Source: a virus (lineage: Duplodnaviria; Heunggongvirae; Uroviricota; Caudoviricetes). From it: a stretch of DNA of 7,986 nt. This document shows positions 1 through 7,986 of the stretch, piece after piece. Made by a program: the position numbers and the translations under genes. The notes below the pieces were generated by a model. The model was not told the origin of the DNA. It saw only the letters and a program-made list of their open reading frames with translations, and did no database searches. The DNA lies in the IMG/VR virus record IMGVR_UViG_2645727640_000024. One strand, given 5' to 3'. How positions within the stretch are numbered: the first letter of the stretch is position 1; every line of letters begins with the position of its first letter.

Positions 1-992
1 CGCTCAGGAAAGAATCATCGCTCAGTGCATTCACATTTGATGGTCCTTATCGCCTGACCGGGCATGACCTGCTGGACAATATGTACTGTGCTGATAACGG
101 ACGGTGGTATGAAACCCCGGTGGACTGGTACGGTCTGGCAAGAGCAGCCCGGCAAACGTCCTGGCATCAGTCTGCGCTTTACTTTAAGCGCAATGTATTA
201 CTCGGTTGCTACATCCCGCACCCGCTGCTTTCCCGGCAGGATTTCTCGGCGCTGGCGCTGGACTGGTTTGTGTTCGGTAACGCATTCCTTGAGCTTAGAA
301 GCAATATGCTCGGCGAACCGCTTAAATTACGGCACGCCCTGGCGAAATACATGCGACGCGGAAGCGATCTTGAATCATGGTGGTATGTGCAGGATGGCAA
401 GGACGCGTTCCAGTTTCGCCCTGGCAAAGTGTGCCACCTGATGAATCCGGATATTAACCAGGAAATCTACGGCATGCCGGAATATCTTGGCGCATTACTC
501 TCGGCCAGCCTTTCTCATTCGGCGGACATGTTCAGAAAACTGTACTACGACAACGGATCCCACGCCGGGTGCATCATCTACATCGGTGCAGCGCAGGTAA
601 ACCGCGAAAGCATGGACTCCCTGAAAGAAACGTTACAGGGCGCGCGTGGTGGTGGTGCGTTTAAAAACGTACTCATCCATGCGCCCAACGGGGGCAAAGA
701 AGGTGTGCAAATTTTGCCGTTCCAGCAGATCACTGCAAAGGATGAGTTCATGAATGTTAAGGCGGCATCCCGTGATGATGTGCTGGCTGCGCACCGCGTT
801 CCGCCGCAACTGATGGGGGCGATGCCGGGCGAAAAAAGTGCGTTTGGTGATGTGGAGAAGACCGCGCGGGTTTACGCAATTAACGAGCTGATGCCCGTCA
901 TGGAGGCCATGAAGCACATCAATGACTGGCTTGGCGAAGAGGTGATCCGCTTTAACCCTTACGCACTGCTAGATACCCAGCCCACATCCTGA
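1..992 (+). CDS. Q: Phage portal protein, P2 gpQ-like, 5'-partial (reading frame open to the window start; stop at 990-992)
   Basis: Frame starting at position 3 has no stop before the first ATG at 81, so the gene continues upstream of the window. Translation contains motifs I associate with P2-family portal proteins (ALAKYMRRG, HLMNPDINQEIYG, YYDNGSHAG, AAHRVPPQLMG, FGDVEKT). Recognition is from memory, not a search. Confidence 0.8.
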   Translation, partial: LRKESSLSAFTFDGPYRLTGHDLLDNMYCADNGRWYETPVDWYGLARAARQTSWHQSALYFKRNVLLGCYIPHPLLSRQDFSALALDWFVFGNAFLELRSNMLGEPLKLRHALAKYMRRGSDLESWWYVQDGKDAFQFRPGKVCHLMNPDINQEIYGMPEYLGALLSASLSHSADMFRKLYYDNGSHAGCIIYIGAAQVNRESMDSLKETLQGARGGGAFKNVLIHAPNGGKEGVQILPFQQITAKDEFMNVKAASRDDVLAAHRVPPQLMGAMPGEKSAFGDVEKTARVYAINELMPVMEAMKHINDWLGEEVIRFNPYALLDTQPTS

Positions 993-1477: not shown

Positions 1478-1747
1478 TCAATTGTTGCTGTTTATTAATC
1501 GCCAACCACGAACATATGCTTCATAGGCATCTCTGTGCCTTACAGTTCCAGCCTGGCTAAACGGAATGTTAGCTAAAACTAAATCATTCTGAGCCATAGC
1601 GCGTCCTTCAAGCGCATCTTTTATGCCTAGCTCAAAAGCACAGGCAGCGCATTTGTGCCGACCTTCTTGTCCTTGATATTCAGGGAGAGACAGAAATGTT
1701 GGATTATAACGATGAGGGTTCTTGCAAATACCTGTTTTAGCCCGCAC
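1478..1747 (-). CDS. Hypothetical protein (89 aa with GTG start; alternative internal ATG start at 1597 giving 39 aa)
   Basis: ORF with GTG start preceded by GAGGT 7 nt upstream; ends 11 bp before a canonical - strand terminator. Composition is protein-like, but I recognise no family. Coding status is uncertain. Confidence 0.3.
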   Translation of the reverse strand: MRAKTGICKNPHRYNPTFLSLPEYQGQEGRHKCAACAFELGIKDALEGRAMAQNDLVLANIPFSQAGTVRHRDAYEAYVRGWRLINSNN

Positions 1748-2111: not shown

Positions 2112-2423
2112 TTACTCAGGAAATAACGCCCGGATATTCCCAGCCATCTGGCTGGTTATCTTAGCCACTGGTGCAGACTGTGCTTCAAACTTTTTTGAGC
2201 TGATTTGTGTCACAGGTAACATCTCATCATCAGCCCATGCGGCCAGTCGGTAAGCCTCTGCCGGATTCGTCTTCAGAAGTGCCAGCCCGGCCAGAAAAGC
2301 CACGCGTTGGCCGCTTTTGCGGGCTTCTGGTGTAAGGCTGTCCAGCCAGGCGCATGCTTCTCCTTCGTTCTTGACGGCGGCGGGCTTCAGATAGAAACTT
2401 ATCCGTCTGGTTGGTGTCGTCAT
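2112..2423 (-). CDS. parR: ParR-like small partition adaptor / DNA-binding protein (103 aa)
   Basis: ATG at 2423 lies 4 nt after the parM-like TAA stop and 7 nt after an AAGGAG Shine-Dalgarno. The track ORF starts earlier at a TTG inside parM and is probably not the real start. N-terminal region resembles plasmid R1 ParR as I recall it (RRxIxFxLxP, LxAGLAL, C-terminal LFPE). Confidence 0.65.
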   Translation of the reverse strand: MTTPTRRISFYLKPAAVKNEGEACAWLDSLTPEARKSGQRVAFLAGLALLKTNPAEAYRLAAWADDEMLPVTQISSKKFEAQSAPVAKITSQMAGNIRALFPE

Positions 2424-2427
2424 TGGT

Positions 2428-3387
2428 TTACTCCTTGTCCATTGCGTACAGCCCATTAACCAGAGCAAACTGTGGCACCCCGTCCGCGATGAAAGTCGCA
2501 TTAACTCCGCAGGCTTCGCGGATAGCGGGTGCCACAATCTCCGCCCCGCCACCGACAACCATCACCCGCCCGTAACCCGAAAAAACCGCCAGCGCGCGGA
2601 TCACGCGTTGTTTCAGTGTTTCTTCCTTTTCACGAATAACCGCCATCAGGCTGGCGTAATGCGCGTCATTGTGGATGTGCTGGCGCAGCCAGGCTTCATT
2701 ATGGCGATGTTCGATAATGGTATTGGCGATGTGGTGACTGGTGCGCATACCGTTAGTGGCCATCACCGACAGTACGGCATCGGCCATAAGAGAAACGCCT
2801 ACGTGTGGATCGCAAAACACCTGGCTGATACCTGCCAGTTGCCCCTGAACCTTTGCCACATCCAGCGTGGTTCCGCCCAAATCCACAATCAGCAGGGATT
2901 CAAACGGACTCATGTCAGCCAGTGCTTTAAAGCCAGCCGGAATGGATTCAGGCATAACCCGTACGTTACGGATAGTGAATGCTTCGCCGTTCTGGTACTC
3001 CACCGGGCGCATGACGTTCGCTTTTTTGCGGTTGATGTTGGCCATGTCCGGCTGTGCGTTTGTGTCGAAATATTCGCTCAGTGGCAGGGTAACAACCACA
3101 TCCACTTCCTGTGGCGTGATGTCTGATTTGACCAGCGCGTGATGAATGGCAATGACATTCACATCGCTGTACTGGTATTGCGTGTCGGTCGTCTGGACAA
3201 AGCGATCGCTGACCGGATCAAAACCATAGCGCACGCCATCAAGCATGTAGTTAGCAGGCTGCGAGCCACCGAACGGCGCAGACCATTCCGACTTGAAGCT
3301 GTTCGGGCTGATGGCGTTGCGGCGTTCGCCGTTCTCAGTCCATGCCAGCTTGATGTTGGTGGAGCCGTCGTCGATGTAAATTTTCAT
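2428..3387 (-). CDS. parM: ParM/StbA-family actin-like ATPase (319 aa)
   Basis: Actin-fold motifs shared with R1 ParM (R100 StbA): N-terminal IDDGSTNIKL (phosphate 1), LLIVDLGGTTLD (phosphate 2), VVGGGAE (adenosine), plus QYSDVNV, VMPESIPAG, LVNGLY. AAGGA 9 nt upstream of the ATG. Confidence 0.88.
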   Translation of the reverse strand: MKIYIDDGSTNIKLAWTENGERRNAISPNSFKSEWSAPFGGSQPANYMLDGVRYGFDPVSDRFVQTTDTQYQYSDVNVIAIHHALVKSDITPQEVDVVVTLPLSEYFDTNAQPDMANINRKKANVMRPVEYQNGEAFTIRNVRVMPESIPAGFKALADMSPFESLLIVDLGGTTLDVAKVQGQLAGISQVFCDPHVGVSLMADAVLSVMATNGMRTSHHIANTIIEHRHNEAWLRQHIHNDAHYASLMAVIREKEETLKQRVIRALAVFSGYGRVMVVGGGAEIVAPAIREACGVNATFIADGVPQFALVNGLYAMDKE

Positions 3388-3418
3388 GTCGGTTTTCCTT
3401 ATGTTGATTAATTAATCG

Positions 3419-3530
3419 TTTACGGGATTCTGAAATCCCGTTTTTGCCTGTTTTGTGCGCGCTTCATATATCGCTGCGCGTTTTTTGCTCATTTACGGGA
3501 TTCGTGAGTCCCGTTTCTGTCTGTTTTTTG
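3419..3530. repeat. Two imperfect 39-bp direct repeats (3419-3457 and 3492-3530), each an 8-bp-stem hairpin (ACGGGATT ... AnTCCCGT) followed by a T-rich tract
   Basis: Copy A TTTACGGGATTCTGAAATCCCGTTTTTGCCTGTTTTGTG; copy B TTTACGGGATTCGTGAGTCCCGTTTCTGTCTGTTTTTTG. Stems are conserved while loops differ. Copy A lies between the A stop and the parM start; copy B lies inside the last codons of the A ORF. Confidence 0.6.
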
Positions 3531-6304
3531 TTTCCACTGGTCAGGCCACCCCGCAGCAGGTCTGCTTTGCGGCTGGCGCGTTCAGTGGTTTCACTGATTC
3601 TCTGTGCGTGCTCTGCGTCGCGGATGGCGCGCAGCATGTCAGAAAGCACGGTAACGGGTGTTTTCATGGTGTTCTGGTCCTGCTGAAGTGTGGATGCCAG
3701 GCGTGCGGCGGCTTCAGGGTCTGATGCCCCCAGCTGTGCCAGATAGCTGGCGACCGGGTTATGGCGGATCTCCGTGCTGCTTACGCCATGATTACGGCTC
3801 AGACGCTGCCAGAGCTGCGTGATTCGGCTGTCCGGGCGGGTATCCGGTTTGCGTACAATTTCAAATCCCTGCGGTGCAATGATGCTGCCGTCAACGTACA
3901 GACTGCCGCCCCGTAACAGGTGCTGCATCTGTTGTTCACCGATATGCAGGCCGAGAGATTCAGCAGACTCCCGCCATTCTTTAGCGAGTAACTCGTGGTT
4001 ATCAGGCAAAGGCCGCTGCTGTTTGCGGCTCTGTGTCCAGTTCTGCATTTCATCGCTGCTGTTTTTTGCCTGTTTGTCACGAAGCGAACGCATCAGCGCC
4101 CGGCGTTCGTGCCGTTTCAGTGAGCGCATCCATTCATTTACTTCAACGCCGTCAGGAAGCTGCGGCCACGGTGCTGGCCGTTCTTCCGGCTGTTCTGTCC
4201 CGTTGTTGCCTGTTTCCTGTACACGGGGACAGTTATTGCCACGAGTCCAAGGGGCGGCAGGGCCGCCCTGAAGGTCAAAACCATTTTCGCGGGCGCTGTC
4301 TTCCGCTTCCGGTTTACGTCTTACCAGCTTCCAGTTATCCGGATGCGTGCACACACGGGAGGATTCCCCGATGAATGGCGACCAGATCCCGTAAATCTGT
4401 ACACTCTGTTCGCCGTAATCGTTCAGCTCATCTGCGAGGTCGTAGGCTGTGCGAATCAGGTAGTCCTTGCGCGGAACAAGTACGCCACCCTGTTTTTCAA
4501 TGTAGGTGGCAAAACATCCGGCATCAGCGGCAGCGAGTACCGCATCCATTGCATCATCCTTCAGCCGTTGTGGGCCTTCCGGGTTGCGTGCCATCTGGCT
4601 GGCAAGGCGGCGGAGTTCACGCCATACCTGACGGGAGGGGATGCCAAAGAACTGGAACTGGCGGACCCGGTGAAGGCGTGCCCAGCCGATGGCGCGTTCC
4701 ACGCTCTCGGCCATTGATTTTCCGGTTTCGTGGTCAACGCGTGGCTTGCCCGTTTTCGGGTCGATGCCATCCACGGCGCGGCTGTCCAGGTTCTTTCCGA
4801 TGTAGGTGGCGATGTAGCTGGTTGGCGTGCCTTTTGAGCCGTCGACATACTCCACCTTAAAGCGCGGAGTAATATCATTGCCCAGCTCGTGGCGGTCTTC
4901 CTGAATGGCAATATCGCGGGTGTGGGACACAATGGTGTCGATTTCTTCCGGATGAGCAAAGACCATCATATGCCAGTGCACGGTGCCGTCATGGTGAGGC
5001 TCCACCGTGCGGATGCCATACCAGCGCAGGCCGTCGCGGTTCAGTTTCTTGCGGACCGCCGCAAAAAACGTGTTAACCAGGTAATCGCTGGAGTCGCGCA
5101 TGGTGGCCCCGTTCCATTTGGGATTCGGATGACCGTTCTCTGTTGTGGCGTGGTATTTTGACGGGCAGGTGACAGTCAGAAACACCGCTCTGTCGCCACG
5201 GGCTTCGGCCAGAAGTTCCAGCCCCTTCATGGTGGCCATCATTTCTGCCTTACGGTGAATCGGGTTACTTACTCCCGCGTAATACACTGTCTCGAGATCA
5301 ATCGTGAACCCGTCTTCGTTTTCCAGCATGAAACTTTTCAGGAAATCGCGTGTTTTCTCGCGCTGTGCGCGAAACTCGCTTAACGCGTCCTGGCTCAGAT
5401 AGGGTGATGTTTTTCTGGAAACCAGACAGGCGGCGCGGAGTTGTTCTTCTCTCCACTCGCAACGTAACAGCCACAGTTTGCGTTTCCACCATTCCGCACA
5501 GGTCAGGCGAAGGATTGCGCCCGGCAGCAGCTCCGTGTCCGGTTCATTCCTCCGGTCTTTGTCTGTTGTCAGAGCGTCATAATGTGGAGGCATAGCGTGC
5601 AGGTGTAACGCCATGCGGGCCAGCATCTGATACGCCTTCAGCGTTACATCCATGGTCAGCTCGCCATCGGTCGCGCCAAAGCCATCGCAGAGTTTTTCAA
5701 AAGTGCCACTGAACATCGCCGCCGTCATGGTGGCCAGCGTCTGTATCTGGTGTTTGTTGAGCTGCGGCAGGTAAAGCAAATCGTCCAGGCGTTCGCGTCC
5801 GGCAAGGGAGCGATAGCCCGGTGTCAGCCAGCGGCTGTCGGTGCGGTCCAGACGTTCGAATATTTTGCGCAGGGTTCCGCGCGCGTAGCGTTCAGCCTGC
5901 CAGCTCTTTTTGCCTTTCTGACGATCGGCTTCCTGCTTCTTGCGCAGAAAAGAGAGGTGGCGGCTCAGAGGTTCACGCAGATAAACGGGAAGCACCTTCA
6001 GTGTGGCAAAAGCACGGGCCACCGGGTCTTGTTCTGTTGCCTGACGCTTGCTGATGATGCTTTGTGCCAGCTTTTCACGCTGTCCGGCTTCCTCAAGGGA
6101 TGCCATGAGTTTTTTACCCACGGTGGATTGTGCGAAAAAGGCTTCTTCCTTCGCTTCCTGTTCTTCCTGTGCCCTTTTGTTTGCCTCAAGGTAGTAACGG
6201 ATGGCGCGTTGCAGGTCGGTTTCAGTTTCCTGCCTGCGCTCCGTAAATCTGGCCGGATCAATGGCTGGCCGTGGTTCATTCCAGCTCCATGCAAACGCAC
6301 TCAT
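3464..6304 (-). CDS. A: Rolling-circle replication initiator endonuclease, P2 gpA-like (946 aa from the ATG at 6304; the track ORF begins at an upstream GTG at 6331)
   Basis: HUH-type motifs: HWHMMVF (metal-binding His pair), catalytic tyrosine pair YIATYIGKNLD, FLTVTCPSKYH. The ATG at 6304 overlaps the upstream gene stop (ATGA). The ORF is long and reads through repeat copy B at its 3' end. Confidence 0.9.
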   Translation of the reverse strand: MSAFAWSWNEPRPAIDPARFTERRQETETDLQRAIRYYLEANKRAQEEQEAKEEAFFAQSTVGKKLMASLEEAGQREKLAQSIISKRQATEQDPVARAFATLKVLPVYLREPLSRHLSFLRKKQEADRQKGKKSWQAERYARGTLRKIFERLDRTDSRWLTPGYRSLAGRERLDDLLYLPQLNKHQIQTLATMTAAMFSGTFEKLCDGFGATDGELTMDVTLKAYQMLARMALHLHAMPPHYDALTTDKDRRNEPDTELLPGAILRLTCAEWWKRKLWLLRCEWREEQLRAACLVSRKTSPYLSQDALSEFRAQREKTRDFLKSFMLENEDGFTIDLETVYYAGVSNPIHRKAEMMATMKGLELLAEARGDRAVFLTVTCPSKYHATTENGHPNPKWNGATMRDSSDYLVNTFFAAVRKKLNRDGLRWYGIRTVEPHHDGTVHWHMMVFAHPEEIDTIVSHTRDIAIQEDRHELGNDITPRFKVEYVDGSKGTPTSYIATYIGKNLDSRAVDGIDPKTGKPRVDHETGKSMAESVERAIGWARLHRVRQFQFFGIPSRQVWRELRRLASQMARNPEGPQRLKDDAMDAVLAAADAGCFATYIEKQGGVLVPRKDYLIRTAYDLADELNDYGEQSVQIYGIWSPFIGESSRVCTHPDNWKLVRRKPEAEDSARENGFDLQGGPAAPWTRGNNCPRVQETGNNGTEQPEERPAPWPQLPDGVEVNEWMRSLKRHERRALMRSLRDKQAKNSSDEMQNWTQSRKQQRPLPDNHELLAKEWRESAESLGLHIGEQQMQHLLRGGSLYVDGSIIAPQGFEIVRKPDTRPDSRITQLWQRLSRNHGVSSTEIRHNPVASYLAQLGASDPEAAARLASTLQQDQNTMKTPVTVLSDMLRAIRDAEHAQRISETTERASRKADLLRGGLTSGNKKQTETGLTNPVNEQKTRSDI

Positions 6305-6690
6305 GGCTGGTATCCCGTCACGCGCTGCCACTCCTGTGAGAAGAGGGCGGAAAGGCGGTTAAATTCAGCGGAGTATTCACTCAGCGAGGCACACCCGCCA
6401 GCAGTGCGATGCGCCAGCATTGCCGCAAATATGGAGGCCGGGGAGTCGTAATACGCCAGCAGTGATTCGCCGTGTGGTGTCAGGCAGTGCAACGCCAGCC
6501 CGTGTGGTGTGAAGTCCACGCGGTAGCAGTCGTCTACTGTGAAATAAAGGGTGTCTGCATTCTCCGGTTTTGTGGTGCGTGCTCTGTTGTCACGACCACG
6601 GATGTAGAGATCAAATAATCCCTGAAGAACGGGAGCCAGACGGGTGTCCTGTGTGCGCACCCATCTTGTGAAGTCATGAGCGTCAATCAT
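6301..6690 (-). CDS. Hypothetical early-operon protein (129 aa) immediately upstream of A
   Basis: ATG start; its stop overlaps the A start (ATGA). Position corresponds to the small ORFs preceding A in P2-type early operons. No family recognised. Confidence 0.6.
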   Translation of the reverse strand: MIDAHDFTRWVRTQDTRLAPVLQGLFDLYIRGRDNRARTTKPENADTLYFTVDDCYRVDFTPHGLALHCLTPHGESLLAYYDSPASIFAAMLAHRTAGGCASLSEYSAEFNRLSALFSQEWQRVTGYQP

Positions 6691-7667: not shown

Positions 7668-7986
7668 TTAATCTGCTTTCTGAATTTCAGCTTCTGAATC
7701 CATGCAGATAATCTCGATATAGGGTTCATCGCCATTAACCTGACGAGATTTTTCGGCTTCGCTAATTATTTCGCGAATGATCTGGTACGGAAGCTCTACA
7801 GTCAGGCGTGTACCGTTCAGATAAACGTAGGTAGCTGCGTTTTTTTCAGATGGAACTACTCCGTCAATAGCTGATGCGCGTAATAACAGTTCACCGCGAA
7901 GGTGATGCTGCCAACTTACTGATTTAGTGTATGATGGTGTTTTTGAGGTGCTCCAGTGGCTTCTGTTTCTATCAGCTGTCCCTCCT
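7668..7986 (-). CDS. Hypothetical early protein, 5'-partial (open to the window end; C-terminus ...PYIEIICMDSEAEIQKAD)
   Basis: My own translation of the - strand from 7985 down to the TAA at 7668-7670 has no stop (105 codons). Not in the ORF track because the start lies outside the window. Confidence 0.5.
   Translation of the reverse strand, partial: GGTADRNRSHWSTSKTPSYTKSVSWQHHLRGELLLRASAIDGVVPSEKNAATYVYLNGTRLTVELPYQIIREIISEAEKSRQVNGDEPYIEIICMDSEAEIQKAD

Follow-up and report, generated by a model that had tools for sequence, protein, structure and literature searches.

Why should a phage that integrates into the chromosome of its host carry a cassette of the kind that partitions low-copy plasmids? 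The question is raised by a stretch of 7,986 nucleotides from the IMG/VR virus record IMGVR_UViG_2645727640_000024 (the whole stretch is called the window below), in which positions 2112 to 3387 encode an actin-like protein of the ParM type and, next to it, a small adaptor of the ParR type. The window is part of a P88-like prophage of the P2 type from Escherichia coli (genus Xuanwuvirus, family Peduoviridae), and it shares about 95% DNA identity with the Escherichia phages Chuche, PhiR44_2 and P88 and the Citrobacter phage phiSM. The answer to which we incline, with somewhat better than even confidence, is that the cassette is a genuine and complete type II (ParMRC-type) set, which is conserved in the replication module of a P2-like temperate phage lineage and acts on the circular, episomal form of the phage genome. 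Three genes are needed to follow the argument:

2428-3387, minus strand: parM, a 319-aa actin-like ATPase (Pfam, PHROG and PDB alignment)
2112-2423, minus strand: parR, a 103-aa adaptor (Pfam PF10784; start as in homologues)
3464-6331, minus strand: gpA, the P2-type replication initiator, a nicking endonuclease (Pfam Phage_GPA, E 9.7e-130)

Pfam, PHROG and the alignment to the ParM of plasmid R1 agree that the 319-aa product is a ParM/StbA protein with the actin-fold ATPase motifs, as the initial annotation of this DNA had read from the letters alone. The Pfam profiles StbA_N and ParM C-terminal domain are matched full-length (E 9.7e-81 and 3e-68, respectively), PHROG 691 ('partition protein') is matched with E 1.9e-88, and R1 ParM (PDB 1MWK) aligns end to end at about 50% identity (E 7.7e-92); a search of NCBIfam gave nothing above the curated cut-offs. 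The sequences DDGSTNIK, MPESIPAG, DLGGTTLD and GGGAE are kept in the alignment to 1MWK, and in the profiles and the alignment the protein has the phosphate-1, phosphate-2, catalytic Glu and adenosine motifs of the actin-fold ATPase of a type II system. The dN/dS ratio of parM stays at 0.05-0.20 even at dS 0.6; the gene is under purifying selection.

The gene downstream of parM had been likened to parR, and the likeness is confirmed once its start is corrected. The mechanically called open reading frame (ORF), 2112-2558 with a TTG start and 148 aa, overlaps parM, and its Pfam and PHROG matches begin only at residue 46-51; the ATG at 2423 is the start used by RefSeq and by all homologues. The true start is this ATG, giving 103 aa, and not the overlapping TTG at 2558. 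It stands 4 nt past the parM stop codon, with the ribosome-binding site AAGGAG within the last parM codons. The protein matches the Pfam family Plasmid_stab_B (PF10784) with E 2.4e-23 and PHROG 2515 with E 7e-59, and the best PDB match of a profile of 17 ParR alleles is the ParR of pB171 (2JD3, 'StbB protein'; E 0.018, residues 8-74), a chain which we take to be a ribbon-helix-helix protein. By its position, its PF10784 match and its profile match to 2JD3, the gene is thus the small adaptor gene directly downstream of parM, with an N-terminal DNA-binding domain, that characterises a type II system. The AlphaFold model of the monomer is of low confidence (pLDDT 57), with helices at residues 20-29, 32-52 and 86-100 and an unstructured N-terminus; such low confidence would be expected for an obligate-dimer fold. 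Across the 17 alleles an N-terminal RRISFYLKP strand, the helices that follow it and a C-terminal NIxxxFP tip (here NIRALFPE) are conserved, N96, I97, F101 and P102 are invariant, and residues ~65-95 are hypervariable. Plasmid ParRs align with this tip at their own C-terminal ends. The protein thus has the predicted layout of a ParR: its N-terminus would bind DNA, its tip would bind ParM, and a flexible linker would join the two. At the level of sequence and profiles, the identification of ParM and ParR withstood both refutations that the initial annotation had set for it.

Several ParR alleles circulate in this prophage family. They range from 98% down to ~54% identity, next to ParMs that are 93-98% identical, and the allele of the window is 84% identical to that of P88. 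In the same pairs, dS is ~1 in the 3' part of parR compared to 0.05-0.1 in parM. The gene is a mosaic (window 2112-2370 and the related loci L016, L025 and L026): the first ~20 codons and everything upstream are near-identical, and the rest has a dS of ~1. The excess of dS in the 3' part over that of parM argues that the alleles are old and have been exchanged, along with the downstream cargo, by recombination with a breakpoint inside parR. Directly 3' of parR in the E. coli prophage L026 (6309-6437) there is a 42-aa ORF with a weak StbA_N match, a parM-like fragment EVDVVITLPLSEYFDT that seems to be left over from a recombination event between two parMR cassettes.

For the third component, the cis-acting site parC, two blocks upstream of parM are a strong candidate on the strength of their arrangement and conservation. 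Repeats had been noticed earlier at 3419-3530, and we find them as two 42-nt copies:

3489-3530, minus strand: parC-like block 1, a 42-nt repeat with palindrome GGGACTCACGAATCCC, inside the last gpA codons, 125 nt upstream of the parM ATG
3416-3457, minus strand: parC-like block 2, a 42-nt repeat with palindrome GGGATTTCAGAATCCC, between gpA and parM (spacer of 76 nt), 52 nt ahead of the parM ATG

The blocks are direct repeats, 81% identical and 73 bp apart, and each is centred on a 16-bp palindrome, GGGAYT-N4-AATCCC, which is confined to these two places in the window; if one mismatch is allowed, the window has 4 strand-matches compared to 0.03 expected by chance. The palindrome is limited to these two sites also in P88 and in the P88-like record NZ_CP148288.1, both of them complete genomes of 34-36 kb. 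Counted from the parM ATG, two GGG-N10-CCC motifs recur at about -125 and -52, 72-74 bp apart, in phages of E. coli, Hafnia and Plesiomonas: their positions are kept in all P88-type loci, in Hafnia relatives with ParMs 93% and 62% identical and in Plesiomonas (62%). In two loci, L031 and L032, extra genes stand between gpA and parM, and the repeats still adjoin parM. Within the P88-type clade the blocks and the N-terminus of ParR are both constant while the linker varies, and across deeper clades both change; this joint change is consistent with the blocks being the site of ParR, and is not proof of it.

Other roles of the palindromes were considered and rejected. They do not seem to be a part of the gpA origin, since in L031 and L032 they go with parM and not with gpA, nor a terminator, since the sense strand has no U-tract and terminator-like matches are found on the antisense strand only. 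The initial annotation had proposed a further binding site of the adaptor at 1999-2043. This repeat is real, as an inverted repeat at 1985-2044, but it is not conserved with the cassette, and we dismissed it as a second centromere: the DNA 3' of parR is ~50% identical in other loci, and the repeat abuts the promoter of the cargo gene orf89. Between block 2 and the parM ribosome-binding site (window 3388-3415) there is also an AT-rich box, TTAATCAA or TATTAATCAA, that is seen in L021, L029 and L031 too and whose position is kept even in relatives with a ParM only 62% identical. It is possibly the -10 box of a weak promoter, controlled by ParR, that the consensus scan missed.

Among the closest known counterparts is the archetype of type II partition, parMRC (stbAB) of the IncFII plasmids R1/NR1. 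Besides the full-length homology of ParM to 1MWK with the motifs kept, the ParM of the window is 46% identical to IncF StbA, and its ParR is of the StbB family with the same arrangement of N-terminal DNA-binding part, linker and C-terminal tip. The order of cis site, parM and parR is the same, and the offset of 72-73 bp from block to block is found also in the iteron blocks of R1-type and IncL/M parC. The differences are that the carrier is an integrative P2-type phage and not a plasmid; that ParR is shorter (103 compared to 117-147 aa); that the cis site consists of two 42-nt blocks with one 16-bp palindrome each, while the plasmid has 2 x 5 direct 11-bp iterons; and that one block lies within the gpA coding sequence, with no consensus promoter between the two. 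A tblastn search with the ParR of the window found no plasmid ParR, the sequences being too diverged. Nothing essential separates the cassette from those of P88, phiSM and other Xuanwuvirus prophages, including the CP-933T-type prophages of O157:H7, which have ParMs 94-98% identical in an identical gene order; the window differs in its ParR allele, its downstream cargo and an IS1 in the early operon.

In the R1 paradigm, ParR dimers sit on the repeat blocks, their tips hold the ends of ParM filaments and the growing filaments push the DNA copies apart. From the homology to R1 parMRC we infer the same steps here. ParR dimers would occupy the two blocks with their palindromes (3416-3530, just upstream of parM) and would capture the ends of ATP-ParM filaments by means of the conserved tip at the C-terminus, and filament growth between two ParR/parC complexes would separate the copies of phage DNA. 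The timing of these events can be guessed from the gene order. A scan between gpA and parM found no sense-strand terminator and no consensus sigma-70 promoter, so the cassette is probably made together with the replication initiator, and gpA would be the probable operon partner of parMR. In this arrangement parMR would form the distal part of a repressor-controlled early operon and be produced with gpA after infection or after induction and excision; as long as the prophage is integrated and repressed, the cassette is probably not expressed.

Replication of P2-type phages starts at a nick made by gpA and yields monomeric circles, which are plasmid-like substrates. The role of the cassette could therefore be to segregate or position circular episomal genomes, which could aid their replication and packaging; alternatively, it could guard the unintegrated or excised genome from loss at cell division. 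Both roles have a precedent, and the notion, from which the initial annotation had started, that low-copy plasmids are the home of type II cassettes is outdated. For the first role the precedent is AlpAC of the Corynebacterium glutamicum prophage CGP3, which is induced early, whose adaptor binds upstream repeats and which is needed for efficient replication of the phage DNA (PMC4446434). There too an integrated prophage encodes an actin-like protein with a co-transcribed adaptor; however, the host is actinobacterial, the actin-like protein is of a different family and the prophage is large, cryptic and not P2-like; the link is a functional analogy only. For the second role the precedent is srpMRC of the integrative elements SXT/R391, a type II partition system on a normally integrated element, which is switched on only when the excision and transfer functions are and which stabilises the circular form after excision (PMC4489591). 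The kinship of SrpM to R1 ParM is no more than distant, no ParR domain can be recognised in SrpR (PMC4489591), and the carrier is a conjugative element and not a phage; it is by function that we liken it to the cassette of the window. The initial annotation had also suggested that the filament system is repurposed, for example for positioning phage DNA or for excluding a competitor. Positioning or segregation of DNA would fit the gene order and these precedents better, while exclusion of a competitor found no support.

The cassette stands in a constant place of a phage that is predominantly found integrated. Two further rows describe its surroundings:

7656 down to 2112, all minus strand: a DUF4754 gene and small early genes, followed by gpA, parM and parR (ORF list)
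81-992, plus strand: P2-type portal gene (Pfam Phage_portal), oriented towards the minus-strand genes, with the cargo and the cos region between

The P2-type integrative character assumed in the initial annotation is borne out by gpA and the P2-type portal gene in the window and by integrase, C and Cox in complete relatives, which place the element among the P2-like temperate phages (Peduoviridae). P88 encodes all three proteins, and full gene sets are present in P88 and in the prophage of strain SCU-105, which adjoins yecA and has an integrase and an immunity region. The segment 2000-3560, which holds the cassette, is 100% identical to chromosomal prophages in several E. coli strains. P2-like prophages of seven genera share the order gpA-parM-parR, and gpA-parM-parR-cargo-portal is the order in all 13 of the 13 related loci that reach the gpA side. 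Even where the ParM homologues are only 53-62% identical (Plesiomonas, Hafnia, Serratia and Enterobacter), the order is gpA, 0 to 2 genes, parM, parR, cargo and portal. The variable cargo of the P2 hotspot starts only past the parR stop codon. As the cassette is fixed beside gpA and the cargo is variable only after parR, the cassette belongs to the conserved replication module and not to the hotspot.

Is the episomal circle then only a passing stage, or does the cassette allow the phage to live on as a low-copy plasmid over many generations, instead of integrating or besides it? The latter was proposed in the initial annotation and, in passing, by Rousset et al. 2022 (PMC9122126). It would suit the character of ParMRC as the classic stabiliser of low-copy plasmids, and a phage-borne ParM homologue, 47% identical to that of the window, is present in the P1-like plasmid-prophage D6, annotated with an StbA-type plasmid stability protein. 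Since D6 lives as a plasmid prophage, a partition function is no surprise in it; the element of the window is integrative. There is also one complete circular P88-like genome of 34,461 bp with integrase, Cox and repressor, deposited as a plasmid of E. coli Z1323PEC0009 (NZ_CP148288.1, locus L027). However, a phage that is 99.9% identical to it over 3.5 kb (cargo, parR and parM) is integrated in the chromosome of a related strain. In the 5,426 complete E. coli genomes the cassette is found in 1304 to 1446 (~24%), at 1715 chromosomal and 2 plasmid places, and in PLSDB it is matched by only 7 of the 72,556 records, most of them fragments, or very large replicons into which a prophage has inserted. 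Integrase, immunity repressor and Cox are kept in all complete relatives and no plasmid replicon is annotated in them; the only gene annotated as a replication initiator is gpA. Its place is in the early gene block, downstream of cox, and if P2 is a guide it would be repressed in lysogens. A phage-plasmid would replicate on its own in the manner of a plasmid and could do without integration, and what we found of this kind is a single circular PLSDB record. Thus the plasmid lifestyle does not hold up well against the chromosomal distribution, the kept integration module and the lack of a plasmid replicon, and we consider it unlikely, the single circular record being what still speaks for it. 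The records of Escherichia phages 520873 and 503458, examined as possible episomes, were rejected; 520873 is a linear chromosomal fragment that ends in the host gene yecA. NZ_CP148288.1 itself begins just past the integrase gene, so that it appears closed at the attachment site, and it may be excised, replicating phage DNA; the assembly of its strain is not among the 5,426 E. coli genomes.

Two other explanations were weighed. The cassette could be an accessory 'moron', an extra gene set that phage growth does not require, as are other genes of the gpA-to-portal hotspot; its ParR and ParM, expressed from the prophage, would disturb incoming related phages or plasmids, by partition incompatibility or by capping of filaments. 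Its place beside the gpA-to-portal interval, a known hotspot of defence and accessory genes in P2 (PMC9122126), and the high diversity of the ParR alleles (42-98% identity) speak for this. On the other hand, the cassette is fixed beside gpA, the diversity of ParR falls mainly in the linker while N-terminus, tip and parC blocks are constant, which is unlike a diverging specificity, and no plasmid with this ParR was found outside prophage inserts, hence there is no evident plasmid target. PADLOC gave no match for ParM, ParR or orf89, and with the cassette invariant beside gpA we also rejected its reading as a defence system. An excluding role is therefore quite improbable. The cassette could as well be a decaying, plasmid-derived relic that hitch-hikes beside gpA. 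Partition is not needed for the maintenance of a prophage, truncated ParM clusters are found, and decayed copies exist, such as L022, where gpA is in fragments and ParR is scrambled. But a functionless passenger would hardly show the low dN/dS of parM given above, keep its synteny across lineages with ParMs only 53-62% identical and its cis blocks in position, or, as in one locus, have a ParM conserved to 93% where the adjoining gpA is only 57% identical; this is to us the least credible of the explanations, with very little in its favour.

Segregation of the episomal phage genome remains the explanation we prefer, and several observations weigh against it. Truncated ParM variants of 261, 229 and 188 aa make up sizeable sequence clusters, which argues that parM is dispensable for keeping the integrated prophage. 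The relatives in Serratia and Enterobacter have a 14-20 nt inverted repeat upstream and not two direct blocks. The AT-rich TTAATCAA box, should it act as a promoter, could lead to expression of the cassette in lysogens. Finally, the last 87 bases of the window (7900-7986) are the end of an IS1, 100% identical to the IS1 copies in P1 and SfIV, which truncates an early gene; in intact relatives this gene stands before the DUF4754 gene. The insertion breaks the early operon upstream of gpA-parMR, so expression of this copy from the early promoter may be lost and this prophage copy may be defective. The exact IS1 junction of the window is absent from the 5,426 complete E. coli genomes searched.

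A broader form of the same idea is that ParMRC, far from being a chance passenger taken from plasmids, is an old core part of the replication module in a deep P2-like lineage across Enterobacterales and segregates or positions the circles made by gpA. The phage ParMs differ among themselves by up to 47%, and in a small neighbour-joining tree they fall outside the plasmid ParM clades. We advance this broader form tentatively, as plausible yet somewhat short of probable.

The presence of the cassette is already known, and the phage-plasmid idea is in print. In RefSeq both genes have correct annotations, namely 'plasmid segregation protein ParM' and 'plasmid partitioning/stability family protein'; the phiSM paper lists a protein of the cassette as a 'fitness' gene (PMC6456863), and Rousset et al. 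2022 reported a putative partition system in about a quarter of P2-like phages (PMC9122126). On expression of the partition genes of CP-933T, the main texts of the literature offered nothing usable. What we add is modest: a candidate centromere, the placement of the cassette in the replication module and not in the hotspot, and distribution data that speak against a standing plasmid lifestyle. Still, about one quarter of the complete E. coli genomes hold an actin-like segregation cassette in a chromosomal prophage. Should its function be the organisation or segregation of episomal phage DNA, the precedents of AlpAC and srpMRC would extend to a major family of enterobacterial phages, and the boundary between plasmid, integrative element and phage would be blurred further. 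If it is moreover an old part of the core module, one of the commonest families of E. coli prophages would possess a phage cytoskeleton of the ParM type, and P88 and phiSM would be a ready genetic system for asking why an integrating virus needs DNA segregation.

The DNA between parR and the portal gene holds a cargo module with the following features:

1478-1747, minus strand: orf89, cargo gene in the gpA-to-portal hotspot (PHROG 3941, unknown function; no Pfam or PADLOC match)
1983-1956: sigma-70-like promoter of orf89 (promoter scan)
1985-2044: AT-rich 26-nt inverted repeat just upstream of the orf89 promoter, a possible operator
1470-1450: terminator of the orf89 cargo module

This module (1450-2044) is unrelated to the DNA at the same position of other P88-like loci. 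Rfam and tRNA scans of the window gave no matches. One locus with a ParM 97% identical, L008 (NZ_JBQPOM010000071.1), is a 226-kb contig labelled Vagococcus sp., a Gram-positive genus, that carries this enterobacterial prophage, and its label is most likely due to assembly contamination or mislabelling. In L007, L016, L024 and L025 parM is 98% identical to that of the window, while the portal and structural module is only ~30% identical and an Ogr/Delta gene adjoins. Such a combination argues that one replication-partition module has been joined with two P2-like morphogenesis modules.

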